64,000 nt of DNA from an uncultured Ignavibacteriales bacterium (GTDB lineage Bacteria > Zixibacteria > MSB-5A5 > GN15 > FEB-12), in contig CAZGMK010000003.1 in the NCBI GenBank assembly GCA_964526835.1, positions 83,436-147,435 on the forward strand, written 5' to 3'. Shown piece after piece: positions 353 through 38,992 of the stretch (positions are counted from its first letter, which is position 1; each line of letters begins with the position of its first letter). The translations under genes and the position numbers were made by a program. A model generated the notes under the pieces. That model was not told the origin of the DNA, made no database searches, and was given only the letters and a program-made list of their open reading frames with translations.

Positions 353-355
353 CCG

Positions 356-2446: not shown

Positions 2447-2447
2447 T

Positions 2448-2750: not shown

Positions 2751-2764
2751 GGCGATAGACAATC

Positions 2765-4702: not shown

Positions 4703-4714
4703 AGGGAAGAGTTT

Positions 4715-6289: not shown

Positions 6290-6291
6290 CA

Positions 6292-6513: not shown

Positions 6514-6515
6514 CT

Positions 6516-6535: not shown

Positions 6536-6547
6536 TTCTGAGTAAAT

Positions 6548-18802: not shown

Positions 18803-20610
18803 TCTTCACTCTTGGGCTGACGGGGTCGCAGGCGCGGCAGGCTTATCATGAAGGATGTCCCCTCTCCCGGCTGCGAATCAACGTCTATCACGCCGCGGTG
18901 CAGTTTGACTGTCCGCTGGCAACTATGCAGCCCGGCGCCATGACCACCCCTTTTGGTCGTGAAATGGAGGTTGAAGATCTTGTCGATCGTTTCCGGGGCT
19001 ATGCCGATGCCGTTGTCGGAAATGGTCAGGGCAATGCGCTCACGGCTCTTGTCGTAGGTCGTCTCGATAGTTACTTCAGCTTCGTAATCGTTGCCCATTT
19101 CCTGTTCTACGATAGACCGTTCTCTGATCGCCTCGGCGGCGTTGGTCAATAGGTGAGTCAGCATCTGCTGAATCTGCGCCACATCAATTTCCGCGTTGGG
19201 CAGATCGGGGTCGTAATCCAGATTGAACCGGATACTCCGGAACCGGGGTTGAGTGCGTAATGAGAATAACAGGTCCTCAACCAGATGGCGGATATCGTAA
19301 CTGATGAATTCGGGATCCGGCCGGGAGAAATCTATGAGGTTATGAACAAACTGCTTGACCCTGTCAATGTTGCCCTGGATTGTCTGGGCATTGTATCGCA
19401 CTTTGTCCCACTGTTCACGATCGAGGTTCTGTTCAATTAGCTCGGCGTTGTTGGCGATCACGGCCAGATTGTTATTCAGCTCGTGGGCGATCGATGCCGC
19501 CATTTCGCCCTTTGCGGCCAGCTTCTCGGAGACGATGAAGTACTTCTCCATCAGTACCTTATCACTAATGTCCTCAAGTGATACTATAATGCCGGGTCGG
19601 TCGGTCGGCAGCCAATCAAGCGGCGTCATATTCACCGACAAGACCTTCTCGAGATACCCTGTATTGTGGTAGAAGCGGGGATCCGCAAACTCGCTTCCGC
19701 TGGTCAAACAGGTGGTCAGCATATGTCGCCAGCGCGGACGTTCTGATGGAGGCAGCAGCGTTATTAGCGAATCGGCCTCTTCCGCCTCGCCTGCCGTTTG
19801 TATCTCGTCCCGATTCCAATCCATGATCTGCAGCGCCACGCGGTTGACGGCCACCAGTCGAGCTTGCTCATCGACGACCAGAGCGCCAATAGGCAACTGC
19901 TCGAGGATTCTCTCAGAGAATGACCGTAGGCGCCGCATTGAGGCGAAGGCTCGGGCATTGCGCAAGGCGGCACCGACCAGGATTGAATACAGTTCCAGCA
20001 GATATAGATCCGATCGCAGAAACATCCGCGAATTGCTGGAGTTATCCAGATAGATAACACCGACAACCCGGGAGCGATCCCGGATAGGGACGCAGATGAT
20101 CGAGCGCAAATGCAGTTCTCGGACTGATGCCCGGCGCGAGTAGCGCTCATCCGACATGGCGTCTGAGCAGTACACGGGTTCACCTGTGGCCGCTACTTGC
20201 GCAGTAACCGAACCGGAGATTCGGTGCTCGTCTTCGTTCAGTTTCTCGTTGGAAAGGTTATAGCTGCTGTGAACCTCCAGGTCACCGTCATCATTGACCA
20301 GCATGACGAGGCCTCGCTCGGCATGCATCAGATCGACCGCCTGGCGCATGATGGCCTGCGAGACTCGGTCGAGTCTCAGAGAGGAATTGACTGCGAGCGC
20401 CGCCTGCAACAGGCCGCGCAGGTTGGACAGGTGACCTTGATCCGGGGTGCCAGTATCCTGGCCCGGGAGTCGAGACCCGGCTATCTGTTCGAGAATCCGG
20501 TCGAATTCGGCCAGGGCGTGACCTACTGCTTCATCGTCTATGGCAGTGTCGGGGCCGGCGCCGTAAGAACCATCCAGAGGTCGTCGAGAATGGGCGGTTG
20601 TCCTGCTCAA
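18799..20610 (-). CDS. Cytoplasmic sensor histidine kinase (GAF-PAS-HisKA-HATPase_c)
   Basis: H-box AASIAHELNNNLAVIANN, N-box LLTNAAEAI, and G-boxes DNGIGI / TTKRGGHGAGL. No TM segments. TTG start. Confidence 0.9.
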   Translation of the reverse strand: MSRTTAHSRRPLDGSYGAGPDTAIDDEAVGHALAEFDRILEQIAGSRLPGQDTGTPDQGHLSNLRGLLQAALAVNSSLRLDRVSQAIMRQAVDLMHAERGLVMLVNDDGDLEVHSSYNLSNEKLNEDEHRISGSVTAQVAATGEPVYCSDAMSDERYSRRASVRELHLRSIICVPIRDRSRVVGVIYLDNSSNSRMFLRSDLYLLELYSILVGAALRNARAFASMRRLRSFSERILEQLPIGALVVDEQARLVAVNRVALQIMDWNRDEIQTAGEAEEADSLITLLPPSERPRWRHMLTTCLTSGSEFADPRFYHNTGYLEKVLSVNMTPLDWLPTDRPGIIVSLEDISDKVLMEKYFIVSEKLAAKGEMAASIAHELNNNLAVIANNAELIEQNLDREQWDKVRYNAQTIQGNIDRVKQFVHNLIDFSRPDPEFISYDIRHLVEDLLFSLRTQPRFRSIRFNLDYDPDLPNAEIDVAQIQQMLTHLLTNAAEAIRERSIVEQEMGNDYEAEVTIETTYDKSRERIALTISDNGIGIAPETIDKIFNLHFTTKRGGHGAGLHSCQRTVKLHRGVIDVDSQPGEGTSFMISLPRLRPRQPKSEE

Positions 20611-20716
20611 GGTCCCTCCATTTCGGGCAACTCTATCTATTGAATTGTATCGGGAAGTGGTCGCGCCCGATGAGTGAACGGCGGTGCTGCGGCCCCATTT
20701 TTCGGGGGGAAAGAGC

Positions 20717-21349
20717 CTATTCTGATCGAATATCGGACAGACGAAACTGGCTGGTCTGGAACTTGAATCGTTCGCGCCCGTAACCGGTCAGACGCAGGAA
20801 CTGGTCGAACATCCACGCCAGTTCAGATTGGCTGTCCGAGGCAGTCGAGCCGTCGGTCGCCTCATTCAACGCCGTCAGCCATACCGTCTCGACCTCGACC
20901 TGCATGAAGTAACGGCTCTTCGAATCAAGGCCGGATTCGTCGCGAAGAATCACCACTACCGAATCGGCCAAAAACCGATGAACGGCCGCCATCGATTTCA
21001 GGACATACGTGGTTTCACCTGACTCCATGGTCGTTGATGATACTTCAAAAGTCTTGGTGGTAAGTGAATAAGAGAGTATATGTGAAGCATTGCTTGATAT
21101 CTCAAGGCTGCTCCCCCAAAGACGTCTCGGCCTTCGCAGCTCAATCCTGATGTCGCAACGCAGAGCCACGCCGTCTTCCAGGCGATTCGCCCGCTCGGCG
21201 GTCAGCAGCATCGACAGGTCGACCTGCACTCTCAGGCTGTCACCCTCATACACCGGAGTCACCGACGGCTCATTGCTCTGCTGAGCCCCGACAGCAACTG
21301 CCAGTCCGATAACCGCAAGGATGGTACTGATGGTCCGGCGCGGCATCAT
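20717..21349 (-). CDS. Exported protein, DUF4390-like
   Basis: Signal peptide MMPRRTISTILAVIGLAVAVGA. The core ..IELRRPRRLWGSSLEISSNASHILSYSLTTKTFEV.. matches my recollection of the DUF4390 pattern, a family usually found next to NtrY/NtrX-type systems. Confidence 0.45.
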   Translation of the reverse strand: MMPRRTISTILAVIGLAVAVGAQQSNEPSVTPVYEGDSLRVQVDLSMLLTAERANRLEDGVALRCDIRIELRRPRRLWGSSLEISSNASHILSYSLTTKTFEVSSTTMESGETTYVLKSMAAVHRFLADSVVVILRDESGLDSKSRYFMQVEVETVWLTALNEATDGSTASDSQSELAWMFDQFLRLTGYGRERFKFQTSQFRLSDIRSE

Positions 21350-26092: not shown

Positions 26093-26659
26093 TCACGAGC
26101 GATATCGCTCGCAGTACTCTCTGATCGCCTGGATGTGCGCTTTGAAGGCGATCCGATCGGGAATTTCATCGAAGCCGAAGAAGCGTACTTCCTCTGCGTC
26201 ATCGGCAGCCCGCAATTCACCGCCGACCTTCTTGCCCAGATAGAGGATGAGCACGGCGTTTGCCCGGGGATCGTCCTGCCCCGAATAGACTTCGAACAGA
26301 CCGGTCAGCTCGATGTCCAGACCGGTCTCTTCGGCCAGCTCGCGTACTGCTGTCTGACGAGGGTTTTCCTCCCACTCCATGAAACCCGCCGGAATACACC
26401 ACCAGCCGATCCGCGGGGGATGGGCTCTCTTGACCAACAGTAACTTGTCGTCCTCGACTACTATCACTCCCGCCGCCGGAATCGGGTTCTGATAGAAGAC
26501 ATATCCGCAGGATCGGTTGGTGCAGACCATTCGCGGCCGGCCGTCGAGGTCACGTTCCTCCAGCTCGGTCCGACACTTCGGACAGTAGGTATAACCCAGA
26601 TGATGATCCTTCAGCGCCATCATTTCATCGACATCGAAATCATCATGCCTTTTGTTCAT
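26093..26659 (-). CDS. Nudix hydrolase with N-terminal zinc ribbon
   Basis: CPKC..(17)..CTNRSC zinc ribbon. Nudix box GWWCIPAGFMEWEENPRQTAVRELAEETGL. The start overlaps the PP2C gene end by 17 nt. Confidence 0.85.
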   Translation of the reverse strand: MNKRHDDFDVDEMMALKDHHLGYTYCPKCRTELEERDLDGRPRMVCTNRSCGYVFYQNPIPAAGVIVVEDDKLLLVKRAHPPRIGWWCIPAGFMEWEENPRQTAVRELAEETGLDIELTGLFEVYSGQDDPRANAVLILYLGKKVGGELRAADDAEEVRFFGFDEIPDRIAFKAHIQAIREYCERYRS

Positions 26660-28907
26660 GAATATCCACTCCGTCAGTCAGCTTCAGGGCCACAATCGTT
26701 GTATCGTCGCGCGGCGGATCGGTTGGATCGTAGGCGCGCACGTCGGCAAGCACCCGCTTCACTAAATCGCCGGGGTCCAAATGGCGGTAATTGCGGACGA
26801 CTTCGACGATTCGTTGCTCTCCGTACTCACGCTCCTGGCTGTCCATTGCCTCAGAGAGCCCGTCGGTGAACATGAACAACACATCCCCCTTCTTAAGCTC
26901 CAGCGTGGCCGACTCGTATTCCATGAACGGAAACGCGCCTATGATCGGTCCGCCGACCTTGAGTCGCTCGACGGCGCCGTTCGCCCGGACCATAATCGGC
27001 CAGTTGTGTCCGGCGTTGGCGTAGCGCAATTGACGACTCTGCGGGTCCAGCTCAGCGTAGAAGAGCGTAACATACTTCTCCGCCGATGTAGCTTCCGTGA
27101 TCTGCTGATTGGCGCGCTTGAGCATCGCGGAAACCGGGTTTCCGTTGGACACTTCATTGCGGATAATCGCCTGCATCTGGGCGATCAGCAGTGCGGCGGG
27201 CATCCCCTTTCCCGAGGCGTCGGCAATTACGATGCCCACGCGCCCATCAGGCATCGCCAGGAAGTCGTAGAAGTCGCCGCCGACGGTTCGCGATGGAGTG
27301 GATGTCGAATGTATTCGGCCGCACGGAATAGTCGGTGGTTGCGACGGCAGCAGATCCAACTGGATCTGACGCGCCATGTTGATCTCTTCCTGAAGTCGTA
27401 AGCGCTCGAGTGATTCGACGTACAGCCGGGCGTTGGTCAGAGCCGATACCATCTGGTTGGAGAGCACCCCCAGCAGGTTTATGTCCTCCGACGAGTACCT
27501 GTAGCCGGCCGCCTTGCGAGTCAAGGCCAGGAATCCCAGGAGGTGCTCGGAATCCTTAAGCGGCAGAATCATTTTGACGCCTCGCCCTTCAAGCACCGCG
27601 GCCAAATCGGAGCCCTGACGGTACTCCGCCAGCGAATCGTAGAACGTCGGTGACTGGAGCAAGTTGATGCCCCGCAGCATCAAGTCCTCGCGGTCGATAA
27701 CATAACGACGCGGATAGTCCTCGGACGGCAGCAGCGCATACTCCTCGAGCTCGTCGTCGTACATGCAGAAGTATACTTGATCGACCAGCAGCGTGGTCTT
27801 GAGAGTGTCCTCGATCGTGCTTCGGAGTCGGGAAGGGTTGAACACCGAGATCACCTGGCGAGAGAACCGTTCGAGTACGTTGCGGTGATCGGCTCGGCTG
27901 CGAATGAACATCGTCTTGATCATATCATCCAGCCAGTTGCTGATTGGCTGAAACATCAGCAACATAACAATGATCAGGCCGTAGCTGACCATATCGGCTC
28001 TGTTGCCGAAGACCGGTTGCAGCATGTCGCGGGCCTGTACCACCAGCAGTATGTAGGTCCCGACGAGTATGGCTGATGTGACGGTTGTCACGAACGACTG
28101 GCGGAAGACCATCTGCACATCGAGAAACTGATGGCGGATCGTCGCCAGCACAAAGAGGGTTGCTCCGACCAAGAGGCCGAGTACCATCAGCACGGCCCCC
28201 GAATCCTTCCCTATGATGTTGGGTACCAGCCAATGCCCGGCGAGGCCAACCACGAAGAAGCCCAGGCCGACACGAATGCCCCATAGTACCCAGCGGGCCT
28301 GGATGCGAATACTGGGATTGGTGACTTGATCGGCTCCGCTTTCGAGGAAGAACACGGCTGCGCCGACATAGGCAAGGTTGATCAGGCCGAAGACCGTCGC
28401 CTGGTAGGTCCGTATCGCCCCGATGGCCAGGCTCAGCCAGGCCGTCAGTTTATTCAGGGGTTCGACTACCAGCGACAGCAGCCCCGACTCGACGGAGTCG
28501 AGAGAGAGACTGTCGAGGGCGCTGATGATTTCCGGGGCAAATAGCACGATCAGTATATGAAACAGGGGGGGGAGGAAGATCAAGTATCGCCAGCGGCTGT
28601 GACCAAGGCTCCTCAGCCGGTCGACCGGATAAGCCAGGGCAAACAGAAGAAGGCAGGGGAAAAAGAACTCCCAGGCGTGCCGCAGGTTGTACAGCGCCGA
28701 GTTATAGAAACTCGCATCCTCACCTCCCTGCAGGGCGAACTCGCCCAGGGCCATCGCCACCGGACCAAGGCCGGAGAAGAACAACATCGTCCCGGTGATT
28801 CTGTTGAGGCGATTGGCGAAGTTGTCCCGGGTGATCGTAATGGCCAGGAAGATCAGGAACCCGCCGGCAAGCAGGTACCCAACCGCTATGAGCTGATCGG
28901 CACTCAT
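26643..28907 (-). CDS. Polytopic membrane sensor - GAF - PP2C (SpoIIE/RsbU-type) phosphatase
   Basis: About 320 aa of TM helices, then a GAF-like region, then PP2C motifs GGDFYDF, IADASGKGMPAALL and FTDGLSEA. Confidence 0.85.
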   Translation of the reverse strand: MSADQLIAVGYLLAGGFLIFLAITITRDNFANRLNRITGTMLFFSGLGPVAMALGEFALQGGEDASFYNSALYNLRHAWEFFFPCLLLFALAYPVDRLRSLGHSRWRYLIFLPPLFHILIVLFAPEIISALDSLSLDSVESGLLSLVVEPLNKLTAWLSLAIGAIRTYQATVFGLINLAYVGAAVFFLESGADQVTNPSIRIQARWVLWGIRVGLGFFVVGLAGHWLVPNIIGKDSGAVLMVLGLLVGATLFVLATIRHQFLDVQMVFRQSFVTTVTSAILVGTYILLVVQARDMLQPVFGNRADMVSYGLIIVMLLMFQPISNWLDDMIKTMFIRSRADHRNVLERFSRQVISVFNPSRLRSTIEDTLKTTLLVDQVYFCMYDDELEEYALLPSEDYPRRYVIDREDLMLRGINLLQSPTFYDSLAEYRQGSDLAAVLEGRGVKMILPLKDSEHLLGFLALTRKAAGYRYSSEDINLLGVLSNQMVSALTNARLYVESLERLRLQEEINMARQIQLDLLPSQPPTIPCGRIHSTSTPSRTVGGDFYDFLAMPDGRVGIVIADASGKGMPAALLIAQMQAIIRNEVSNGNPVSAMLKRANQQITEATSAEKYVTLFYAELDPQSRQLRYANAGHNWPIMVRANGAVERLKVGGPIIGAFPFMEYESATLELKKGDVLFMFTDGLSEAMDSQEREYGEQRIVEVVRNYRHLDPGDLVKRVLADVRAYDPTDPPRDDTTIVALKLTDGVDIHEQKA

Positions 28908-28935
28908 GGACTATTGCCGCTTCACAACAGCGAGA

Positions 28936-29358
28936 CTACTTGATTGTTTTGCGAATAGTTACAGTAGTGCCATCCTCGGACGGCTCGATATCCACCTCGT
29001 CCATCAGCGAGCGCACAATGAAAATACCCCGTCCGACGTCTTTCAGCAGGTTCTCGTCGCTGATGGGATCATCAACCTCATCCGGGTTGAAACCGGTTCC
29101 CCTGTCGCGAACCGTAATAATGGCCTGATTATCTTGCCTGGTCACGTTCACCTCAACCGGTGTCTCGCCCGCAGCCCGGTTGCCGTGAAAGATGGCGTTA
29201 TTGACCAATTCGGAAACAGATATCGCAATGTCGGCGATGACCGACTCCGACGCACTCCATCCCCGCAGCAGCCCCTCCACGAACATGTCCACGTCGGTCA
29301 GGAACTTCTGGTCGGAGGGCACCACAATCGTATCGCCTTTGATTACCGGCTTGTCCAT
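28936..29358 (-). CDS. Anti-sigma-factor-type Ser kinase (RsbW/SpoIIAB-like, HATPase_c_2)
   Basis: N-box SELVNNAIFHGN and G-box VRDRGTGF. I preferred ATG 29358 (GAGG upstream); an alternative GTG lies at 29403. Confidence 0.75.
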   Translation of the reverse strand: MDKPVIKGDTIVVPSDQKFLTDVDMFVEGLLRGWSASESVIADIAISVSELVNNAIFHGNRAAGETPVEVNVTRQDNQAIITVRDRGTGFNPDEVDDPISDENLLKDVGRGIFIVRSLMDEVDIEPSEDGTTVTIRKTIK

Positions 29359-29441
29359 ATAGCTGGCCTCGATTGCAGGAAAGGCAGGTTGCCTTCCAGC
29401 CACCTGCCGTATTCAGTGTCTAGTACAGGCGCCCGTATCGG

Positions 29442-29780
29442 CTATTCGAACGACTCAACGGCGTCTTCAACGGAATCGTAAGCCTCAAACACACCGACCA
29501 GCTTCGTGATCGTCAAGAGCGACTGGATCTTCTCGGTGATTCGGGCCAGTTTGAGCTTGCCGTCGCTGTTACGAAGCGTGGTATAGCCCTGAATCAGAAT
29601 CCCGAGTCCGGTCGAGTTCATCCATTCGACCCCGGCCAAATCGATGATCACCTTCTTCTTATCCGCCTTGATGCACTCGTACAGCTTGTCGTGCAGAAGA
29701 CTGGCATCCGGGCCACCCATGATTTTACCCTCGGGCTGCAGAATCACGATGCCACTCTCCTCACGGTAGTTCAATTTCAT
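29442..29780 (-). CDS. STAS-domain anti-anti-sigma factor (RsbV/SpoIIAA-like)
   Basis: 112 aa. ..VIIDLAGVEWMNSTGLGILI.. contains the conserved phosphorylatable Ser context. Confidence 0.85.
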   Translation of the reverse strand: MKLNYREESGIVILQPEGKIMGGPDASLLHDKLYECIKADKKKVIIDLAGVEWMNSTGLGILIQGYTTLRNSDGKLKLARITEKIQSLLTITKLVGVFEAYDSVEDAVESFE

Positions 29781-30030
29781 ACCGCATACGCCTCCGCTGT
29801 CGGCCTGTTATCGCTTTCTCTTACGCGCCACATTCAATCTGTGTTTCCGCAAAGAGGCTCCTGTAGTGTCTTCATCCGGCTTGCCCTCACCGGCTGGCGG
29901 GCCGGATTCACGCAGGCACGAAGTAACCCCACAATTACCCGTACCGAGAGTCGCAAGTCAAGGTCTTTCTCGTCTTGCGCGTGCGGTAAGGTGTTAATTC
30001 ATAAGGGGTTCCGCTTTGGCGGCAAGAGAA

Positions 30031-30052
30031 GGGGCGGCCGGGAAGCCGCCCC
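30031..30052 (-). terminator. Candidate intrinsic terminator after the OFOR-flavoprotein operon
   Basis: GGGGCGGC-cgggaa-GCCGCCCC, an 8-bp GC stem lying 10 nt beyond the stop at 30062. On the minus strand it is followed by UUCUCUU. Confidence 0.5.
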
Positions 30053-30061
30053 TGACTGGTT

Positions 30062-30526
30062 TCAGTCAATGTTGTGCGTCAGCTTGCCTGCCTGCTCACG
30101 GCGTGAGGTAGGTTTGGCCGGACGATAGTCCAGGGCCTTGGTGGGGCAGAAGTGCGCGCACACCGGATCGCCCCCGCAGAGGTCGCACTTGACCATCATG
30201 TCGTGCTGGCTGTCGTATAAGGTACAGCCGAACGGACAGGCGGCCTCACAGGCGCGACACTTGACGCACTTGTCCTGATCCAGTTCGATGGCCCCGGTTT
30301 CCTCGTTGCGCGACAGGGCGTCAACCAGGCACGATTTGACACACGCCGGATCATCGCAATGCAGACAGACCACTGGAGTATAAAGGTCCTTCGCACCGCC
30401 GGGCAGGGGATAGATACGGCTGCGGCTGGGTTTATTGCCGATCTGGTGGGCGAAAGCGCATGCCAACTCACACGTGCGGCATCCGATACACAGGCTCGGG
30501 ATAACCATGAGACGTGACTTGATCAC
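30062..30526 (-). CDS. CooF/DmsB-like polyferredoxin (four Cys clusters)
   Basis: Cys motifs CIGCRTCELAC, CLHCDDPACVKSC, CVKCRACEAACP and CDLCGG..CAHFCP. The GTG start at 30526 is preceded by GAGGAGG and overlaps the upstream stop (GTGA). The longer ORF to 30601 is unlikely. Confidence 0.8.
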   Translation of the reverse strand: MIKSRLMVIPSLCIGCRTCELACAFAHQIGNKPSRSRIYPLPGGAKDLYTPVVCLHCDDPACVKSCLVDALSRNEETGAIELDQDKCVKCRACEAACPFGCTLYDSQHDMMVKCDLCGGDPVCAHFCPTKALDYRPAKPTSRREQAGKLTHNID

Positions 30527-31308
30527 GACGTCACCTCCTCGTCGCTTCGGCTCCACCTGACAATGCTGCCCATCCTCAGGGAAATCTCCTTTCGATGACA
30601 CTCATCACAGATATCGAAGTACTCTCGCGGTATATTGCGCATCTTGCTCAGCGTGTCGGCGAAAGCTTCAGTGATAGTCAATTTGCCGCACTTGTGGCAC
30701 TTGATGCGATTGAATTGCTTGCCCCAGATGGTTCGGGTATCGCCCGAGTCTTCGTACTCTATGAAGTTCGTCGGGCAATTTTCGGCGCAGCTCAAACAGC
30801 CGACGCAGTCCGGCGGCGCCTGCTTCAAAGGGGGCGCCACTTCGCGACCGTGACCTCGGTCGACCATGCTGATCGCGTGGAAGCCGAGGGTGTCACAGAT
30901 GCGGGTGCAGATGGCGCACAGGATGCAATTGTCGCCGTCGGGAATCGTCTCGTAGCTGGTCTGGGTGACTCCATACTCGGCCGCCAGCTTGCGAATCTGC
31001 GTTGAGTTCGGACAGCGTGCCAGTTGCAGATCGAGCACCTGTCGCCTCAGTTCGTCGACTTCTTCGGTGTGGGTCCGGACAATCAAGCCGTCCTCGACCG
31101 GATACAGACATGATGTCACGTGCTTGACCCAGCCGTCCCATTCCCTCCGCGTGATCTCCACCATGCAGAGACGGCAGGCTCCGTATGGCTCCACCGCGTC
31201 GTGATGGCAGAGCGCCGGTACATCAATGCCCATCCGCTTGATCACGGCCAGGAGCATTTCGCCTTCTTTGGCTTCGGTTGCGCGTCCATTTATAGTGAGT
31301 TTAACCAT
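30523..31308 (-). CDS. HoxU / NuoG-N-terminal-like iron-sulfur protein ([2Fe-2S] plus 2x[4Fe-4S], no catalytic domain)
   Basis: N-terminal MVKLTINGR..LCHHD..GACRLCMVEI is a Fer2_4-type domain. Followed by CILCAICTRIC and CVGCLSCAENCP. There is an additional CHKC...CDEC pair at the C-terminus. Confidence 0.75.
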   Translation of the reverse strand: MVKLTINGRATEAKEGEMLLAVIKRMGIDVPALCHHDAVEPYGACRLCMVEITRREWDGWVKHVTSCLYPVEDGLIVRTHTEEVDELRRQVLDLQLARCPNSTQIRKLAAEYGVTQTSYETIPDGDNCILCAICTRICDTLGFHAISMVDRGHGREVAPPLKQAPPDCVGCLSCAENCPTNFIEYEDSGDTRTIWGKQFNRIKCHKCGKLTITEAFADTLSKMRNIPREYFDICDECHRKEISLRMGSIVRWSRSDEEVTS

Positions 31309-31319
31309 GCCGACTTCTC

Positions 31320-33176
31320 CTACCGCACAATGACGGCATCACGTTGGCAGATCGCCTTGCATGCGCCGCACTTGTCGCATCGTTCCTGGTCGATGATATG
31401 CACTTCGTTTTTCTTGCCGCTGATGCACTTCTGGGCGCAGGCGTGGATGCAGGCCATGCACCCGTCGCATTTCTCCGGGTCGATCTCGTATGTAATAAGG
31501 GCGCGGCAGACCCCGGCCGGGCAGCGTCGGTCGCGAATGTGGGCCAGGTACTCATCCCGGAAATAGCGGATGGTACTCAAAAACGGGTTGGGGCCCGACT
31601 TGCCGAGACCGCACAGCGAGCCGATGACAATCGACTTCGACAGCCGTTCCATCTTGTCCAGATCGTCTTCCGTGGCCCGTCCCTCGCTGATTGCAACAGC
31701 CAGAGCGTGAAGCTGGTAGAGTCCTTCACGACACGGGACGCATTTGCCGCAGGACTCATCGATGAGGAAACTCAGGAAGTACTTCGCCACGTCGACCACG
31801 CAGGTGTTTTCGTCCATGACGATCATGCCACCGGAACCCATCATCGAACCGGCCTGGGTGAGGGTGTCGAAGTCCACCGACAGGTCCAGCTTGTCCTCGG
31901 GCAGACAGCCGCCGGAAGGTCCACCGGTCTGCACCGCTTTGAAGGGACGACCTTCCAGCACGCCGCCGCCGATGTCGTAGATGATCTGGCGCAGGGTCGT
32001 GCCCATGGGTACTTCGATCAGCCCGCTGTTGCAGACCTTGCCTACCAGAGAGAAGGCCTTAGTCCCTGAACTCTTCGATGTTCCGATCGCGGCGAACCAG
32101 TCGCCGCCGTGTTCGATAATGAGCGGGACGTTGGCGTAGCTCTCGACATTGTTGAGAACCGTGGGCTTGTCAAACAGTCCCTTTTGCACCGAGCGGATGT
32201 ACTTGGCGCGCGGCTCGCCGACATTCCCGGCCACCGACTGCATGAGAGCAGACGATTCGCCGCAGACGAAGGCGCCCCCTCCCCGACTGATGCGAATGTC
32301 GAAATCGAATCCGGACCCGAGAATGTCCTCGCCGAGCAGACCCAGATCGCGGGCGTCCTCGATGGCCCTTTGCAGGTTGACGACCGCCAGGGGGTACTCC
32401 TCGCGGACGTAGATGTACCCCTCATGGGCCCCGACCGCCCAGGCTGCGATGATCATACCCTCGAGGACCGAGTGCGGATCACCTTCCATGATGGCGCGGT
32501 CCATAAACGCGCCCGGGTCGCCCTCGTCGCCGTTGCAGATGACGTAGTGCGGGGTTTCCTCAAGTCTGGCACAGGACTCCCACTTGCGTCCGGCAGGAAA
32601 CCCGCCGCCGCCACGACCCCGCAGGCCCGATATCTTGACCTCATTGATTACATCTTCGGCCTTCATCTTGGTCAATGCCTTAGCCGCACCGCCGTAGCCA
32701 CCAACCGCAATGTATTCCTCGATATCGCCCTGACGAATTCGTCCCAGGTTGCGCAGGGCCAGGCGCTGCTGGTTCTTGTAGAAGTCAATGTTGCGCCAGT
32801 CGCATATCTTGTTTCCCGTCCCGGGATCGGTGTAGAGGAGACGCTCGATTGTCTTCTTGCCGCGAATAGTCTCTTCGACGATCTCCTCAACATCTCCGGG
32901 GCGCACCCGGGTGTAGAAAATCCCCTCGGGTTCGATGACCACAAGCGGGCCGAACTGGCACAAACCATGGCAGCCGGTCTCGACCAGTGCTTCGACAGAG
33001 AAGTCCTTGATGCGTTTCTTATTGAGAACGGCATTGAATTTGTCGCTCACATCCCGCGCCCCGCTGGCGAGGCATCCGGGCCCGCAACAGATCAACACCC
33101 GGCGAGAGTGTTTGGCCATCTTTGCCTGGCACTCTTTGCGATACTTCTGAAGCTGTTTGACCGATTCCATTCGCAT
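31320..33176 (-). CDS. NuoF/HydB/HoxF-like NAD(P)H-binding flavoprotein (Trx-like [2Fe-2S] N-domain, FMN/NADH core, C-terminal 2x[4Fe-4S])
   Basis: FMN site GLRGRGGGGFPAGRKWE. NADH site VICNGDEGDPGAFMDR. N3 cluster ESCGKCVPCREG..LCGLG. C-terminal CDGCMACIHAC and CDKCGACKAIC. ATG 33176 sits after GGAGG; a GTG at 33179 is also possible. Confidence 0.9.
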   Translation of the reverse strand: MRMESVKQLQKYRKECQAKMAKHSRRVLICCGPGCLASGARDVSDKFNAVLNKKRIKDFSVEALVETGCHGLCQFGPLVVIEPEGIFYTRVRPGDVEEIVEETIRGKKTIERLLYTDPGTGNKICDWRNIDFYKNQQRLALRNLGRIRQGDIEEYIAVGGYGGAAKALTKMKAEDVINEVKISGLRGRGGGGFPAGRKWESCARLEETPHYVICNGDEGDPGAFMDRAIMEGDPHSVLEGMIIAAWAVGAHEGYIYVREEYPLAVVNLQRAIEDARDLGLLGEDILGSGFDFDIRISRGGGAFVCGESSALMQSVAGNVGEPRAKYIRSVQKGLFDKPTVLNNVESYANVPLIIEHGGDWFAAIGTSKSSGTKAFSLVGKVCNSGLIEVPMGTTLRQIIYDIGGGVLEGRPFKAVQTGGPSGGCLPEDKLDLSVDFDTLTQAGSMMGSGGMIVMDENTCVVDVAKYFLSFLIDESCGKCVPCREGLYQLHALAVAISEGRATEDDLDKMERLSKSIVIGSLCGLGKSGPNPFLSTIRYFRDEYLAHIRDRRCPAGVCRALITYEIDPEKCDGCMACIHACAQKCISGKKNEVHIIDQERCDKCGACKAICQRDAVIVR

Positions 33177-33646
33177 CACTTCTTCCTCCGGTCTCGCAGC
33201 AGCTTCTTCATATGCGTGAGTTTGACCCCGCCATAAAATTTGTCATTGACGGCGACTACCGGCGCCATCGAGCAAGCGCCGACGCAGGCCACCTTCTCGA
33301 GCGTGTACTTGAGGTCGGGCGTCGTGTCTCCCGCCTTGATTCCCAACTCGTTCTCGAGACGTTCCACAATTTGCTGAGCGCCGCGAATGTGGCAGGTCGT
33401 ACCCATACAAACCCGAATGCACTTCTCGCCTCGCGGTACCAGGCTGAAGGCGTTGTAGAAAGTGGCCACCGAATAGACCTTGGACAAAGGGACGTCGAGT
33501 CGCTCAGCCGTCTTATGCAGTGCCTCTTCGGGCAGGTAATGATACTCCTGTTGCACATCCTGAAGCACCGCGATCAGCGATTCCCTGGTCTGTGGGTAGC
33601 GTTCGAAAATCGCGGGCAGTCTATCCAAATCCAACTCTGCTTTCAT
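33176..33646 (-). CDS. NuoE/HydC/HoxE-like [2Fe-2S] thioredoxin-fold subunit
   Basis: CMGTTCHIRG...CVGACSMAPVVAVND. ATGA overlap with the OFOR gamma gene stop. Confidence 0.85.
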   Translation of the reverse strand: MKAELDLDRLPAIFERYPQTRESLIAVLQDVQQEYHYLPEEALHKTAERLDVPLSKVYSVATFYNAFSLVPRGEKCIRVCMGTTCHIRGAQQIVERLENELGIKAGDTTPDLKYTLEKVACVGACSMAPVVAVNDKFYGGVKLTHMKKLLRDRRKK

Positions 33647-34212
33647 GCCTTGACCTTCTTGCTCTTCCCGGCCACTTTCCGGCCAAGTTTGAAGCCCTGC
33701 TCCAGGACCGCGAAGTTGACCTCCAGGACTTCCTTCTTCCTGGCCAGCTTCTCCTTGATGATTTCCCGCACCGTATCGACCTTGACCACCCCGGTTGCGC
33801 CGATGAAAGCACCGAGAACCACAACATTAGCCGCCCTGGCGTTACCTGCCTTCCTGGCCATATCATTAGCCGGCATCAGCAGTTCAGTTATGTCGTCGCG
33901 ATCGGTAGTGACGTCAATGAGTGAGCTGTTGACTATCGACAGCCCGCCGGGCTTGATCAGTGGAATGAATTTGTCAAATGAAGGACGATTGAAGACACAG
34001 GCACATTGCGGCTTCGTGATGATCGGCGACCCGATGCGATGGTCCGATACGACCACTGTGCAATAGGCGGTGCCTCCACGCATCTCCGGGCCGTAGCTGG
34101 GCAGCCAGGTAACGTGCTTGCCCTCGGCGATGCCTGAGTAGGCCAGAAGCTGGCCGGCGGTCAGGATCCCCTGGCCGCCGAACCCGGCGAAGGTGACTTC
34201 ATACTGTTCCAT
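33643..34212 (-). CDS. 2-oxoacid:ferredoxin oxidoreductase, gamma subunit
   Basis: FAGFGGQGILTAGQLLA..PSYGPEMRGGTA. ATG 34212 is preceded by GGAGGG and overlaps the beta-subunit stop (TAATG). Confidence 0.85.
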   Translation of the reverse strand: MEQYEVTFAGFGGQGILTAGQLLAYSGIAEGKHVTWLPSYGPEMRGGTAYCTVVVSDHRIGSPIITKPQCACVFNRPSFDKFIPLIKPGGLSIVNSSLIDVTTDRDDITELLMPANDMARKAGNARAANVVVLGAFIGATGVVKVDTVREIIKEKLARKKEVLEVNFAVLEQGFKLGRKVAGKSKKVKA

Positions 34213-34967
34213 TACTTGCCCTCCGGATCCTTGAAGCAACCCAAAGGATAGTAGGGGATCATCTTATCGGCCAGCCAGTCAGTTGCCTCAGCCGGGTTCA
34301 TTCCCCAGTTGGTCGGACAGGTCGAAAGCACCTCGACAAACGTGAAGCAGCGATCCTCAACCTGATAGGAGAAGGCCTTCTTGATTGCCTTTTTCGCCTG
34401 GACAATATGCCTTGGGTCGTAGACGGTAACCCGTTCAACGTAGGCCGGCGTGGCCAGCGTGGCCAGGAGCTCAGACATACGAATGGGCATCCCGACTTGG
34501 CTGGTGTCTCGACCAAAGGGGCAAGTAGTTGTAATCTGGTTTTCAAGTGTCGTTGGAGCCATCTGACCGCCGGTCATGCCGTAGATGGCATTATTGACGA
34601 AGACAACCGTGAACTTCTCGCCTCGATTGGCGGCGTGCACGATCTCACCCATACCGATTGACGCGAGATCTCCATCACCCTGATAGGTGAAGACTATCAT
34701 ATCAGGCCGCAGGCGCTTAAAACCGGTAGCCAGCGCCGGAGCGCGACCGTGCGCCGCCTCCATGAAATCGGTGTTGATATAATTGTAAGCCAGCACCGAA
34801 CAGCCAACCGGCGCCACTCCGCAGGTTCTCTCGCGAACGCCCAACTCGTCCAGTGACTCCGCAATCAGGCGGTGAATCACACCGTGGGTGCAGCCCGGAC
34901 AGTAGTGGGTGACGTTTTCCTTCATGGCCACCGGCCGGTCGAAAATAGTCCTGGTATCAACTGCCAT
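34212..34967 (-). CDS. 2-oxoacid:ferredoxin oxidoreductase, beta (TPP-binding) subunit
   Basis: CPGCTHGVIHRL and TPP motif YQGDGDLASIG...NNAIYGMTGGQ. ATG 34967 is preceded by GAGG; an alternative TTG lies at 34979. Confidence 0.9.
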   Translation of the reverse strand: MAVDTRTIFDRPVAMKENVTHYCPGCTHGVIHRLIAESLDELGVRERTCGVAPVGCSVLAYNYINTDFMEAAHGRAPALATGFKRLRPDMIVFTYQGDGDLASIGMGEIVHAANRGEKFTVVFVNNAIYGMTGGQMAPTTLENQITTTCPFGRDTSQVGMPIRMSELLATLATPAYVERVTVYDPRHIVQAKKAIKKAFSYQVEDRCFTFVEVLSTCPTNWGMNPAEATDWLADKMIPYYPLGCFKDPEGK

Positions 34968-34975
34968 AGGACACC

Positions 34976-36118
34976 TCAACCTTTCTTCTTGCTCTTAGCC
35001 GTCTTGCCCCCGGTCTTCTTCGAGGGGCTCTTGGCCTTCGCGCTCTTCTTCTGGGCCACCAGCTTGTAGACCTGCTCCTTGATCTCTTCAACCGATGGCA
35101 CGATGCCGCCAGTGCGCCCATAGAAGTGCACCGGACGTTTGCCCTTGACGGCCTTCTCGACATCGTCGTTCATCTGGGCCGTGCTCATCTCGATGGTCAA
35201 CACCTTCTTGATATTCTTCCTGGTGGCTTGCTCATGAATCTCGGCCTCGGGGAATGGGAACAGGGTTATCGGTCGGAACAACCCGACCGACAATCCCTCG
35301 GCCGCCAACTCATCGATGGCCGTCTGGCAGATACGTGCCATGGTGCCGTAGGAGACAACGAGCAGCCGGTTTTCCGTCTCTACTCTGTAGAGCTCGTAAC
35401 GCACTTCCTCGCGTTTCATCTGCTCGTACTTTGCATGCAGTTTCCAGGCGCTCTTCTCGAGCGCTACCGGATCGAGGAACAGTGACTTAATGATTCTCGG
35501 TTCTCGGCCATCGGCCCCGGTAGCCGCCCAGTCTTCAGCGATCTCCGGACGAGCCACCTCAATGTCTTCATCTGGGAATTCAACCGCCTCCATCATCTGT
35601 CCGATCATGCCGTCGCCGATCATCATGACCGGATTCCGATACTTGTCGGCCAGATCAAAGGCCAGCATCATCAGATCGACTGCTTCCTGAATACTCGAAG
35701 GGGCCAGAACAAGGAGTCGATAGTCTCCGTGCCCGCCCCCTTTCGTGGCCTGGAAATAATCGGACTGAGCCGGCAGAATGCCGCCGAGGCCGGGACCGCC
35801 ACGCATGATATTTACAATCACCGCCGGCAACTCGGCCCCGGCCATGTACGAGATCGCTTCCTGCATCAAGCTGATTCCGGGGCTCGACGAAGTAGTGAAG
35901 ACCCGTTTGCCTGTCGAAGCCGCGCCGAAGAGCATGTTCGATACGGCCACTTCGCTCTCGCCCTGGAGAAAGACACCGCCGACCTCCGGCATCCGTCGGG
36001 CGAGATACTCGGCTACCTCGGTCTGCGGCGTGATGGGATAGCAGAAGTAATTCCTGGCTCCGGCGCGGATGGCGGCCTCAGCGATCGCCTCATTACCCTT
36101 CATTAGTATCTTTGCCAT
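34976..36118 (-). CDS. 2-oxoacid:ferredoxin oxidoreductase, alpha subunit (with Lys-rich C-terminal tail)
   Basis: MKGNEAIAEAAIRAGARNYFCYPITPQTEV is a typical KorA/PorA N-terminus. The tail is KKSAKAKSPSKKTGGKTAKSKKKG. Confidence 0.9.
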   Translation of the reverse strand: MAKILMKGNEAIAEAAIRAGARNYFCYPITPQTEVAEYLARRMPEVGGVFLQGESEVAVSNMLFGAASTGKRVFTTSSSPGISLMQEAISYMAGAELPAVIVNIMRGGPGLGGILPAQSDYFQATKGGGHGDYRLLVLAPSSIQEAVDLMMLAFDLADKYRNPVMMIGDGMIGQMMEAVEFPDEDIEVARPEIAEDWAATGADGREPRIIKSLFLDPVALEKSAWKLHAKYEQMKREEVRYELYRVETENRLLVVSYGTMARICQTAIDELAAEGLSVGLFRPITLFPFPEAEIHEQATRKNIKKVLTIEMSTAQMNDDVEKAVKGKRPVHFYGRTGGIVPSVEEIKEQVYKLVAQKKSAKAKSPSKKTGGKTAKSKKKG

Positions 36119-36139
36119 GGCTCCTATCCATCCCTCCGG

Positions 36140-36373
36140 TTAGTACTCAAACAGGCTGTAGCTCAGGCCGTGAGTGTGAACCTCGATCGCCGCATCGGGA
36201 CAGGTAATGGCGCAAATCATGCACCCGATGCATCTCGACGGATCGGCGACTTCGGCATAGAAATAGCCGCGCACCGTGATTTCGTCGGACATCTTGAGTA
36301 TCTTCTGCGGACAGGCTCGTACGCACAACTCGCAGCCTTTGCAGTGGTTCTTGTCAACTGTTACTCCGGGCAT
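36140..36373 (-). CDS. 2-oxoacid:ferredoxin oxidoreductase, delta (2x[4Fe-4S]) subunit
   Basis: 77 aa with CKGCELCVRACP and CIGCMICAITCP. Confidence 0.85.
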   Translation of the reverse strand: MPGVTVDKNHCKGCELCVRACPQKILKMSDEITVRGYFYAEVADPSRCIGCMICAITCPDAAIEVHTHGLSYSLFEY

Positions 36374-36398
36374 TCAATTATCCCCGTCATCTATGGGT

Positions 36399-37169
36399 TC
36401 ATCCCGTCGGCCGCTCCCACGGCCTCAGAAGCTGCCGATCGAGCGGCAGCAGCGGGACTCCAAGCGTCTTCAGTCCTGGTTTCGCCGCCACATCCTTTAT
36501 AGCACTTACGAAAGCTATGGGCATGTTCATATCATTACTTACTTCCCGGGCTAACGCCAGACCACGCCTGACGTCGTCAATCGTTGTGTTTTCCATCAAG
36601 TGCGTATTGGAGATGATGCCGGTGAAACGAAGCCTCGAAGAGGCCTCAATAGCCTGCATCATCTTGCGACAACCCTCCAGATCCGATGTGAACGGGCGAT
36701 AGGCATTCAGCACGAGGAGCAATTCGTAGTCGCTATCGGCCAGGGCATCGGAAAGTGAACTTAACACGCGCGCTCCGACGTCGTCGCCCCCGACATCCAG
36801 GATCACCTGACCCTCGTGGCGGTCAATCGCCCCTTTGATCTCCGGCACGATGATGGGAAGGTCAGCGTGACGCTGGTCGCCGGGCGGAATAATCGGCGTA
36901 ACACCGATCTCAACCAGGCGCTCGGCCGCCTCCCGCGACCGGAAATATGGATTAACTATGTCCAGGTCGGCCAAAGCCACCTGGTCGTGAGTCTGCAGTA
37001 TCAGCAGACGCGCCAGATTGACCGCAACCTCCGATTTGCCGCTGCCATAACCTCCCACGATTATAATCAGTTCCTTCTTGAGTTGGGGCAGGGGAGGGTG
37101 TGTATCTCTGACGACCATCACTATTAAATCCATGCGCCGGACAGTCTTAACCGCCGGCAACTGCGGCAA
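36399..37169 (-). CDS. P-loop NTPase (SIMIBI/G3E-like), function unknown; first gene of the OFOR operon
   Basis: Walker A IVGGYGSGKSEV and a DVGGD (DxxG-like) motif. The start is uncertain: TTG 37169 or ATG 37133. Confidence 0.5.
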   Translation of the reverse strand: MPQLPAVKTVRRMDLIVMVVRDTHPPLPQLKKELIIIVGGYGSGKSEVAVNLARLLILQTHDQVALADLDIVNPYFRSREAAERLVEIGVTPIIPPGDQRHADLPIIVPEIKGAIDRHEGQVILDVGGDDVGARVLSSLSDALADSDYELLLVLNAYRPFTSDLEGCRKMMQAIEASSRLRFTGIISNTHLMENTTIDDVRRGLALAREVSNDMNMPIAFVSAIKDVAAKPGLKTLGVPLLPLDRQLLRPWERPTG

Positions 37170-37284
37170 GATACTGGACTTGTCCGGCCTTTGAAGTCTT
37201 ACTCATCCCGGTCCGGATTCAATATGGTGCGCCGAGAAGCCGAAGTCAAGCCTCTATGTGAAAATCGTAACTATTATAATGCAT

Positions 37285-37375: not shown

Positions 37376-38215
37376 ATGGGTGTTTTTTTGCTGGTCAACA
37401 GGTACCTGGCGAGAATCTGCATCGGGTTTTTGGTTCTCATGTTCGTCGGCTGTTCATCCGAAGAGGAGGCCGATTCGGGCATTTCGGAGGCAGACGCACG
37501 GTACTCCGATTGGCTTCTGTACAGTCACGATAATGTCGTACTGCATTACCCGGAGAATCATCCCTTCGCCGACAGGATTCCGGATCTCGCGGCTGGTTAC
37601 CCGGCAGCCATTGAAGCCGATGCCCTTCTGCTACAGATGACTCCTCCGCGCGAGACCCTGCATGTCTTCGTCTACACAGGACCGGGACACGCCCATGAGC
37701 TCACCGGTCAGAGATACCCCTTTGTCGAAGACAACAGCATCCACTACTGGCAGCCGCATTACCTCGGCGAGACTGTGATGGAGTACGTTCTGTCGCGATG
37801 GACCGATGTCAGTCCTCGGTTCAAGTTTCTGCGTGAAGGGCTGATCACGCTCATGGACCACTCACAGACGAGCCACCACGAGAAGGTGAAGGAACTGATA
37901 GAAAACGGAACCCGAATCCCGCTTGATTCCCTCGCTGCCGATACGGTGATGGACCATAACCGGTGGGCCTTGCGCTCGCAGCAGGCGGCTTCATTTGTCG
38001 ATTTCCTGATTTACATGTACGGCCTGCCCGTCCTGAAGGCGCTCTGGGTGTCGCCGACAACCTGGGATGAGGCCGTGCAGAAGCTGCTTCAGATGTCCTC
38101 TACGCAGCTCGACGATGAGTGGGTCGAGTTCGTAGAGCAAGTGTCCGAGGGCAAGCGGCCAGAGCCGAAGACCATGCCCTGGCACGGAGTACCCCCCGAT
38201 TCCGCCAATCAATAG
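37376..38215 (+). CDS. Hypothetical lipoprotein
   Basis: Signal peptide with lipobox-like ..LMFVGC-SSEE. I recognised no family. Confidence 0.5.
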   Translation: MGVFLLVNRYLARICIGFLVLMFVGCSSEEEADSGISEADARYSDWLLYSHDNVVLHYPENHPFADRIPDLAAGYPAAIEADALLLQMTPPRETLHVFVYTGPGHAHELTGQRYPFVEDNSIHYWQPHYLGETVMEYVLSRWTDVSPRFKFLREGLITLMDHSQTSHHEKVKELIENGTRIPLDSLAADTVMDHNRWALRSQQAASFVDFLIYMYGLPVLKALWVSPTTWDEAVQKLLQMSSTQLDDEWVEFVEQVSEGKRPEPKTMPWHGVPPDSANQ

Positions 38216-38224: not shown

Positions 38225-38992
38225 ATGGCTGAGCAGAACTGGAAGACATCAATCACCAACATCGGTCCCGGCAAGATCCGGGTTCGCGGCTACGATATCG
38301 CCGAAATCATGGAGAAGTTGTCGTATGCCCAGGTGGTATACCTGATTCTCAAGGGGGAGCTGCCCGGTGAGGCCGAGGCCGAACTTATGAACGCTGTCCT
38401 GGTTTCTTCGATTGACCACGGCGCTACCCCGCCCTCGGTGTTGGGGACTCGGACTGTCATGTCCGGCGGCAATTCTCTCAACGCCGCGATCGCCGGGGGC
38501 GTACTGGTGATCGGAGATACTCACGGTGGAGCGATCGAGAACGCCGCCCGGATCATGCAGGACTGGGCGAAAAAAGAAGGCGCGCCGACAGCCCTGGCCG
38601 GTCAATTGGTCGATTGGCTCAAGGAAGGAAAGCGGCGCATGCCCGGTTTCGGCCATCGCCTGCACAAGATCGATCCGCGAACCGGCAAGCTGTTCGAGAT
38701 TGCAGCGCGGCATGGTTACAGCGGCCGGCATATCGAGCTGTGCAAGGCTGTCGAGAAGGCGCTGGCTGAGAAGACCGGACGGGAATTGCCCATCAACGTC
38801 GACGGTGCTATCGCGGCAGTGATCTCGGATATGGGCTTTGACTGGCGGCTGGGCAAGGCGTTCTTTATCATATCGCGGACGCCGGGACTGGTGGCTCACG
38901 CCTACGAGGAAATGACCCGTGAGCGGCCGATGCGCAAGCTGGGGCCGCTGCCGTTTGAATATGATGGCCCGGAGGATCGGGAGATAGGGTAG
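38225..38992 (+). CDS. Short citrate-synthase-fold protein, citryl-CoA lyase-like
   Basis: 255 aa. Citrate synthase catalytic signatures GDTHGGAIENA and GFGHRLHKIDPR, but only the C-terminal half of a full citrate synthase is present. Confidence 0.65.
   Translation: MAEQNWKTSITNIGPGKIRVRGYDIAEIMEKLSYAQVVYLILKGELPGEAEAELMNAVLVSSIDHGATPPSVLGTRTVMSGGNSLNAAIAGGVLVIGDTHGGAIENAARIMQDWAKKEGAPTALAGQLVDWLKEGKRRMPGFGHRLHKIDPRTGKLFEIAARHGYSGRHIELCKAVEKALAEKTGRELPINVDGAIAAVISDMGFDWRLGKAFFIISRTPGLVAHAYEEMTRERPMRKLGPLPFEYDGPEDREIG

Follow-up and report, generated by a model that had tools for sequence, protein, structure and literature searches.

A nine-gene operon on the minus strand of a 64,000-nucleotide stretch of DNA from an uncultured Zixibacteria bacterium (contig CAZGMK010000003.1, positions 83,436 to 147,435; hereafter the window) joins the genes of a four-subunit 2-oxoacid:ferredoxin oxidoreductase (OFOR) to those of a BfuABC-type flavoprotein and a polyferredoxin. 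With a probability of roughly 0.6, the operon (window positions 30062-37169) encodes one multi-subunit bifurcating enzyme of the BfuABC family in which the OFOR would serve as the third-substrate module. A hard-wired connection of the OFOR to a flavoprotein that handles nicotinamide adenine dinucleotide, NAD(H), appears well supported by the sequences. The most likely function would be the oxidation of a 2-oxoacid obligately coupled to reducing NAD+ and ferredoxin (Fd) at the same time, which would be reversible in principle. Gene content, conservation, homologies and signature residues are the evidence from which physical association, bifurcation, stoichiometry, substrate and direction are predicted below.

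The operon belongs to a family that has already been predicted and is not a new kind of system. The Bfu family was defined by its conserved BfuBC core, and an uncharacterised "Por-Bfu ABCDEFG" of Type 2 with 12 members from Chloroflexi and Proteobacteria was described as part of it (Schut et al., 2022; PMC9304861). A reading made from the letters of the window before this analysis (the sequence-only reading) knew of no characterised OFOR-NuoEF complex, which still stands; the kind itself had, however, already been named, as Por-Bfu, in 2022. New compared with the published Por-Bfu are the WorS-type connector, the BfuA tail, the OFOR subfamily and the NTPase, and the 12 published members may include the same variant.

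The nine-gene operon and its conservation

Nine minus-strand open reading frames (ORFs) were verified in 30062-37169, and the domains that had been assigned to them agreed between ORF reading, Pfam and NCBIfam. The operon starts with a P-loop NTPase gene (36399-37118, 239 aa, its start set by a public protein with 100% identity). It is followed by the genes for OFOR delta (36140-36373, 77 aa, a ferredoxin with two [4Fe-4S] clusters, Fer4), alpha (34976-36118, 380 aa, POR_N and PFOR_II, with a Lys-rich C-terminal tail), beta (34212-34967, 251 aa, binding thiamine pyrophosphate (TPP), TPP_enzyme_C) and gamma (33643-34212, 189 aa, POR family). The next three genes encode the NuoE/HydC-like BfuC (33176-33646, [2Fe-2S] cluster C1, 2Fe-2S_thioredx), the NuoF/HydB-like BfuB with its site for flavin mononucleotide (FMN) and NAD(H) (31320-33176 or 33179, 619 aa) and the HoxU-like BfuA of WorA type (30523-31308, 261 aa, Fer2_4 and two [4Fe-4S] clusters). 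The last gene encodes a WorS/CooF-type polyferredoxin (30062-30526, 154 aa, Fer4_11) with four Cys motifs for four [4Fe-4S] clusters.

Gene starts were refined using homologues and public gene calls. The polyferredoxin starts with GTG at 30526, which is preceded by the Shine-Dalgarno sequence GAGGAGG, and the beta ATG sits 8 nt past the alpha stop, in agreement with the public gene call. From 5' to 3', the junctions are 25 nt, 21 nt, 8 nt, TAATG (the beta/gamma overlap), ATGA (the gamma/BfuC overlap), (G)TGATG, 11 nt and GTGA, so that the ATGA, TGATG and GTGA junctions and the largest intergenic gap of 25 nt were read as previously described. Predicted translational coupling thus spans the OFOR/Bfu border, by the ATGA, as well as the whole operon, which counts for one enzyme. 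The operon had also been described as lacking a hydrogenase, formate dehydrogenase or other catalytic partner, and this holds across the whole 64 kb, where no such gene and no WOR gene was found.

The NuoF-like protein was used to scan one genome per GTDB species, and the resulting 80 loci were sorted by tblastn of the nine window proteins. The nine-gene order was seen in 21 species-level genomes from two lineages, in three of them (L004, L012 and L027) only up to the point where the contig or an assembly gap interrupted it. The order was complete in L001-L003, L005-L011 and L013-L016, which come from Zixibacteria and relatives, and complete despite inserted genes in L026, L030, L040 and L043.

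The first lineage (group A, L001-L016) displayed BfuB identities of 68-77% and, where the contig permitted, all nine genes with their order unchanged. Locus L004 is cut at beta. In L012, on the "complete" Zixibacteria chromosome CP070777, a 100-N assembly gap (8864-8963 of the locus) lies just upstream of gamma; therefore, the genes from the P-loop NTPase to beta were not seen there. The second lineage (group A2, L026, L027, L030, L040 and L043) was more distant, with identities of 54-57% for BfuB, 59-63% for alpha and 40-42% for the P-loop protein, and additional ORFs were interspersed between the nine genes, indicating that the gene order survived insertions. In L040, three of the ORFs between the cluster genes (4173-4559, 7433-7801 and 12938-13297) encode four-helix-bundle proteins of the "23S rRNA intervening sequence" family PF05635, and two further ORFs are located at 4948-6232; larger gaps were also observed in L026, L027, L030 and L043.

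A third set (group B) comprised 11 loci of Dehalococcoidales, Anaerolineae and Deltaproteobacteria arranged as gamma-(delta)-alpha-beta-BfuC-BfuB-BfuA. Their OFOR was only 25-30% identical to that of the window, and no P-loop or polyferredoxin gene was present in these loci. Schut et al. print a "Por" sequence of Dehalococcoides mccartyi in their supplement, and the BfuB of group B matched it. The other loci among the 80 contained BfuCBA with different partners, many of them with a CooF-like gene and a 2-kb upstream gene resembling Wor. One of these may be a loose OFOR/Bfu neighbourhood: in L053 (Aminicenantes), a second and more distant delta-alpha-beta-gamma OFOR cluster (18125-20912, alpha 34% identical) lies about 6 kb downstream of BfuCBA genes with a long BfuA (1075 aa).

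In a neighbour-joining tree of BfuB, calculated without support values, groups A and A2 were sister clades apart from group B, and group B was placed near WorB. The tree, the OFOR subfamily and the gene order together are suggestive of an OFOR having been recruited to a Wor-like Bfu scaffold in an event of its own or, at the least, one of ancient divergence.

In public metagenomes, the searches with the NuoF-like, alpha and P-loop proteins each gave more than 100 distinct clusters at 90% identity, and the closest relatives of all three proteins were from metagenome-assembled genomes of Zixibacteria (GN15). The exact window proteins were present on Logan and NCBI contigs. The nine-gene arrangement is conserved far beyond chance. 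The earlier suggestion that the OFOR and the NuoE/F/HoxU-like module form one unit was borne out by the recurrence of the order in the 21 genomes, and the gene-neighbourhood census it had called for, run here from the BfuB side, found OFOR-NuoEF adjacency in groups A, A2 and B. The variant is abundant and conserved across Zixibacteria, and its nine genes form a defined set that could be expressed heterologously for the first biochemistry of an OFOR-Bfu enzyme.

Signatures of the subunits

BfuB aligned over its entire length with bifurcating subunits of known structure, the E-values ranging overall from 1e-212 to 1e-223 (NiFe-HydB 7t2r_B, 4e-223; WorB 9mqx_B, 8e-219; Thermoanaerobacter kivui HydB 8a6t_B, 3e-218). 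Signature residues were compared with Supplementary Figs 9 and 10 of Schut et al. The residues of the Bfu-type NADH/FMN site (DEGDPGAFMDR and GAFVCGE) are present, the window having NGDEGDPGAFMDRA and GGGAFVCGESSALM. The ligands of the B1 [4Fe-4S] cluster and of the B2/Zn site are kept as well, with NTCVVDV, ESCGKCVPC, SLCGLG, AHIRD and CPAGVC all aligning; the B2-site ligands Cys/His/Cys/Cys correspond to Cys438, His525, Cys531 and Cys536 in Acetomicrobium mobile numbering. Pfam detected the N-terminal [2Fe-2S] domain (B5, 2Fe-2S_thioredx, residues 26-103) and the two C-terminal [4Fe-4S] clusters (B3 and B4, Fer4/Fer4_9, residues 570-616), and the Cys residues of B3, B4 and B5 align with those of 7t2r_B, 9mqx_B and 8a6t_B. 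BfuC showed a full-length match to PF01257 (E = 1e-51), belongs with the NuoE/HoxE families and carries a CxxxxC...CxxxC motif.

Bfu enzymes conserve these BfuB features, whereas the non-bifurcating Nqo1, HoxF and Hyd1 have them altered or lack them (Schut et al., 2022; PMC9304861). By sequence comparison, BfuB thus bears every signature of the bifurcating Bfu enzymes. The FMN, NADH and N3 motifs, the N-terminal thioredoxin-like [2Fe-2S] domain and the two C-terminal [4Fe-4S] motifs that the sequence-only reading had seen in the NuoF-like protein were recovered by Pfam and by the structure alignments, and its placement of this protein with the extended HydB/Bfu type agrees with the end-to-end alignments and the signature residues.

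The best PDB match of BfuA was WorA (9mqx_A, E = 2.8e-49), the next match being at 4e-22. The alignment runs across the CxxC...CxxC zinc finger, and the His-ligated A3 motif is missing. BfuA accordingly has motifs for one [2Fe-2S] and two [4Fe-4S] clusters without A3, followed by a conserved C-terminal tail (HRKEISLRMGSIVRW...). The polyferredoxin matched WorS best over its full length (9mqx_E, E = 4.5e-32), followed by AorA (8c0z_C), which is filament-forming, and WOR5-S (6x6u_B); its top NCBIfam match was the PadI N-terminal domain (97 bits). The earlier domain calls of "HoxU-like" and "CooF-like" protein were right as far as they went, and the two are better read as a WorA-type BfuA and a WorS-type connector. 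By sequence, the two features of Wor-Bfu, a WorA-type BfuA and a WorS-type subunit with four [4Fe-4S] clusters, are both present.

In the structure of WorABCSL, a C-terminal helix of WorA recruits WorS and the S4 cluster comes within 10.7 A of A4, and electrons pass along S4-A4-A2-A1 and then into the BfuBC core (PMC12318220). We found that the length of the BfuA tail varied together with the presence of a WorS-like gene. Group A BfuA has a conserved extension of 21-25 residues past the zinc-finger position (HR+EL+LxMGxIxxW...), group A2 BfuA has a different conserved tail of 14 residues, and group B BfuA ends 1-2 residues past CPDC. Wherever a BfuA of the zinc-finger type had a tail of at least 14 residues, the locus always contained a WorS/CooF-like gene, and the apparent exceptions were loci truncated at the relevant contig end; all 11 group B loci (Dehalococcoidia/Deltaproteobacteria-type Por-Bfu) combined the 1-2 residue tail with the lack of a WorS-like gene. 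In six group A members (L002, L003, L010, L013, L014 and L015), the zinc-finger cysteines are replaced (e.g., CxKTGK ... DDEH) and the tail is kept, so that the tail and not the zinc site appears to be the selected element. The C-terminal tail of the WorS-like protein itself is short and poorly conserved. The co-variation of tail and WorS-like gene, together with the published structural logic, argues that the polyferredoxin physically connects BfuA with the OFOR. A WorS-like gene in an OFOR-Bfu locus further suggests that the "plug and wire" design of WorA tail and WorS extends from tungsten to TPP enzymes.

The OFOR module consists of alpha, beta (with its Cys ligands), gamma and delta according to Pfam and NCBIfam, which places it among the four-subunit 2-oxoacid:ferredoxin oxidoreductases. 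Alpha scored 531.5 bits on NCBIfam NF005507 (VorB subfamily, cut-off 399), a subfamily model and not an equivalog, and the nearest families of delta were OorD and the delta subunit of 2-oxoglutarate:ferredoxin oxidoreductase (OGOR), below the cut-off. VOR-like four-subunit clusters cover members with quite different substrates, such as HpdDEFG, and the literature on OGOR specificity residues yielded nothing usable for assigning a substrate. Among the matches listed, the homologues of alpha were Zixibacterial proteins with at least 72% identity. In Zixibacteria (group A), the alpha C-terminus is a low-complexity tail rich in Lys/Arg that differs in length between loci (34976-35060 in the window); the gamma C-terminus in the window (33643-33690) is also Lys/Arg-rich, and the Lys/Arg-rich OFOR tail is missing in the A2 lineage.

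The P-loop protein showed weak CbiA/ParA matches in Pfam, and a PDB sequence search with it gave nothing significant. It has a Walker A motif (GGYGSGKS), a Walker B-like motif (ILDVGGDD) and one Cys, and no Fe-S-bridging motif. In the AlphaFold2 (AF2) model, with a predicted local distance difference test score (pLDDT) of 85.7, the top folds were the SRP54/FtsY G domains at template modelling (TM) scores of 0.52-0.63, a generic similarity. According to this model, the first gene encodes a SIMIBI-class NTPase. The gene stands first in every complete nine-gene locus. SIMIBI NTPases of the CooC, HypB and NUBPL types act in assembly or maturation, and by analogy the protein most likely has such a role, which is the weakest step of our explanation.

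Proposed mechanism, related systems and alternatives

In the proposed mechanism, the 2-oxoacid would be oxidised at the TPP of the alpha and beta subunits, and the electrons would pass to the [4Fe-4S] cluster of beta, the two [4Fe-4S] clusters of delta and then the four [4Fe-4S] clusters of the WorS-like polyferredoxin. The polyferredoxin would be docked on BfuA by the C-terminal tail of BfuA, like WorS on WorA, and would pass the electrons through A4, A2 and A1 of BfuA into the BfuBC core. There, FMN and its neighbouring clusters would split them between NAD+ and, via the C-terminal BfuB clusters B3 and B4, free ferredoxin. The net reaction would be 2 2-oxoacid + 2 coenzyme A (CoA) + NAD+ + 2 Fd(ox) -> 2 acyl-CoA + 2 CO2 + NADH + 2 Fd(red), reversible in principle. 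A precedent is Wor-Bfu, also with a low-potential third substrate, which reduces NAD+ and ferredoxin only together (PMC9304861). If this holds, models of carbon and redox metabolism in Zixibacteria would change, with NADH and reduced ferredoxin arising together at the 2-oxoacid step. Such a combined output would be useful given the metabolism of Zixibacteria RBG-1, which has no Rnf (Castelle et al., 2013).

Several points weigh against this explanation. A donor near -500 mV could reduce either acceptor exergonically, so that it is not obvious what bifurcation would gain, a point raised by Schut et al. themselves (2022; PMC9304861). The Bfu clusters are necessary for bifurcation and not sufficient. 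The zinc finger of BfuA appears not to be essential, having been lost in the six group A members, and the single-sequence AF2 model of BfuA reached a pLDDT of 40 and is uninformative on the C-terminal tail. The substrate labels conflict, alpha being of VorB type in NCBIfam and of 2-oxoglutarate type in JGI, and delta being nearest to OorD. The literature on OFOR-Bfu consists of bioinformatic mentions, with no biochemical, proteomic or transcript evidence and no purified member.

Compared with Por-Bfu, the operon shares the contiguity of four OFOR genes with bfuC-B-A and a Type 2 BfuA (A1, A2, A4 and the zinc-finger motif), and a similar reaction logic has been proposed for both. For Por-Bfu, Schut et al. 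(2022; PMC9304861) proposed either that pyruvate is formed from NADH and ferredoxin or that its oxidation reduces NAD+ and ferredoxin in obligate coupling. The published Por-Bfu has the order gamma-(delta)-alpha-beta and seven subunits, with no S subunit, no NTPase and a BfuA tail of 1-2 residues. The Zixibacterial cluster, in contrast, has the order delta-alpha-beta-gamma, an alpha of the VorB subfamily and an OFOR of 25-30% identity, as well as an extra WorS-like polyferredoxin, a BfuA tail of 21-25 residues and a leading NTPase. It is thus not a seven-subunit Por-Bfu lacking the S-type polyferredoxin and the C-terminal extension of BfuA. The literature had generalised that Bfu enzymes linked to an OFOR have no WorS-type subunit, and the variant contradicts this. 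The published Por-Bfu BfuB proteins represent clades 35/44/45 (Schut et al., PMC9304861), and the window BfuB branched apart from the Dehalococcoidia-type loci in our unsupported neighbour-joining tree.

The best or second-best solved relatives of BfuA, BfuB and the polyferredoxin were WorA, WorB and WorS from WorABCSL of A. mobile, a purified bifurcating tungsten aldehyde oxidoreductase (PDB 9MQX, PMC12318220). Both systems have a BfuA without A3 and with a zinc-finger motif and C-terminal extension, and an S subunit with four clusters. They differ in the catalytic partner, which is the tungstopterin subunit WorL in one and a TPP/Fe-S OFOR in the other; no gene of the AOR/WOR family was found in the operon or the window. 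The Wor operon is without a P-loop NTPase, whereas the window has one. The S subunit of WorABCSL polymerises into a 3:1 nanowire, which its counterpart in the window, with a short and poorly conserved C-terminal tail, may or may not form. HydABC and NiFe-HydABCSL resemble the window proteins in that the cofactor-binding residues of BfuB and BfuC align over the full length (E = 1e-196 to 1e-223). They differ in that the window has neither a hydrogenase domain nor a hydrogenase subunit, and in that its BfuA is cut down to the WorA form.

The alternative that survives best is that the same complex runs in reverse, with NADH and reduced ferredoxin driving a reductive carboxylation as an anabolic 2-oxoacid synthase or as part of a variant of the reductive tricarboxylic acid (TCA) cycle; we consider this unlikely, though worth serious weighing. 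OFORs and Bfu enzymes are reversible, alpha falls in the VorB subfamily, and the methanogen members of this subfamily act anabolically. Pyruvate synthesis was also proposed by Schut et al. for the Por-Bfu of Dehalococcoides (PMC9304861). Moreover, a gene for a citryl-CoA lyase-family protein (38225-38992, plus strand, 255 aa) lies divergently upstream of the operon, scores 304 bits on NF004869 (cut-off 212) and is kept there in 12 Zixibacterial loci. The sequence-only reading had taken this gene as support for reductive carboxylation. The gene is real, but the adjacency is not independent evidence, since synteny within the phylum covers the whole flank, RsbW/RsbV/SpoIIE module and two-component system included, and the gene is missing near the cluster in the A2 lineage. 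As independent evidence for a reductive TCA cycle it was therefore rejected.

Published metabolism also bears on the direction. Zixibacteria RBG-1 was described as heterotrophic, its TCA cycle being oxidative and containing OGOR, with no Rnf and no ATP-citrate lyase or other markers of autotrophy, and autotrophy was judged unlikely (Castelle et al., 2013). Furthermore, NADH (about -280 mV) mixed with ferredoxin (about -500 mV) is a weaker reductant for a -500 mV couple than ferredoxin alone, by our own estimate on the potentials tabulated by Schut et al. (PMC9304861). The description of RBG-1 favours the oxidative direction.

A bolder version of the oxidative bifurcating enzyme would have several OFOR-polyferredoxin units stacked on one BfuABC plug, like (WorSL)3 on WorABC. 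The NTPase would control the assembly of this nanowire, and 2-oxoacids from the TCA cycle or from amino acids would be oxidised with an equal split between NADH and ferredoxin, in a phylum reported to lack Rnf. We regard this picture as speculative and rather improbable.

It is doubtful that the enzyme is instead a non-bifurcating, NAD(P)+-reducing OFOR with the flavoprotein as a plain diaphorase, comparable to PadEFGHI (Azoarcus/Aromatoleum) or AorABC. In the former an OFOR, and in the latter a tungsten aldehyde oxidoreductase, is wired to NAD+ via a CooF-like four-cluster domain, so NAD-linked enzymes with a CooF/WorS-like wire do exist. The window polyferredoxin has the PadI N-terminal domain as its top NCBIfam match and AorA as its second PDB match, and a -500 mV donor oxidised by NAD+ needs no coupling. 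However, Pad and Aor use a single subunit with flavin adenine dinucleotide (FAD; PadH and AorC) and are non-bifurcating, whereas the window has the full BfuBC core and no PadH/AorC-type subunit. The CooF-like protein is separate and not fused to beta, and the Pad models scored far below their cut-offs. Because BfuB keeps what non-bifurcating homologues have lost, namely the B3/B4 clusters, the B2 site, B5 and the signature residues telling bifurcating Bfu enzymes and NuoF/HoxF apart, the direct reduction of NAD(P)+ by a plain diaphorase, one of the two options of the sequence-only reading, became less likely.

It is very unlikely that the operon encodes two separate, co-transcribed enzymes, namely a ferredoxin-reducing OFOR and a BfuABC-polyferredoxin complex that re-oxidises this ferredoxin or works with a partner encoded elsewhere. 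OFORs normally use free ferredoxin, and the contact between OFOR and Bfu is itself a prediction. Yet BfuABC with the S subunit has no site for a third substrate and no other catalytic partner is encoded within 64 kb, order and coupling persist across two lineages, and all solved relatives have their S-type polyferredoxin attached to a catalytic subunit. The last idea, a detachable NADH-input module for a complex I without one, can be dismissed, although nuoH-N are located in the same window (356-7996) and RBG-1 has an 11-subunit complex I without the N-module (Castelle et al., 2013). The gene immediately upstream of nuoH closes with a Molydop_binding domain, a mark of NuoG, so the nuo operon comes with an N-module of its own. 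BfuB and BfuA have the architecture of HydB/WorA and not of Nqo1/Nqo3, and the Bfu genes lie within the OFOR operon, at a distance of 22 kb from the nuo genes.

Flanking signals and neighbouring genes

A promoter-like site (TTGACT-17-CATATT, 37221-37249, minus strand) matching the consensus is located in the 257-nt divergent intergenic region ahead of the P-loop gene; three such sites were found in the region and 3.6 are expected by chance. Downstream of the last gene, a GC hairpin with a U-rich tract (30023-30053, minus strand) is a probable intrinsic terminator. The hairpin (30030-30053), already noticed in the sequence-only reading, folds with a 10-bp GC stem at -21.9 kcal/mol (z = -2.6; 3 of 200 shuffles fold as well) and is followed by UUCUCUU; a simple terminator scan did not flag it, and its support comes from folding. 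An Rfam scan of the operon and its leader detected no riboswitch or other RNA family.

Between the operon and the citryl-CoA lyase-family gene lies a gene for a putative lipoprotein of 279 aa (37376-38215). Citryl-CoA synthetase, the metabolic partner of the lyase, was not found in the 64-kb window. At the start of the window (1-7996, plus strand), a segment of a complex I operon comprises the C-terminal part of a NuoG-like gene (Molydop_binding, 2-349) and then nuoH, I, J, K, L, M and N, so that the organism possesses a canonical NuoG besides the Bfu module.

Directly downstream of the operon and on the same strand, a partner-switching module (26643-29780) encodes a STAS anti-sigma antagonist (29442-29780), a HATPase_c_2 kinase (28936-29403) and a membrane protein (26643-28907) that was read from its sequence as a putative SpoIIE-type phosphatase. 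A two-component system comes next after this module, and about 10 Zixibacterial loci share this synteny.

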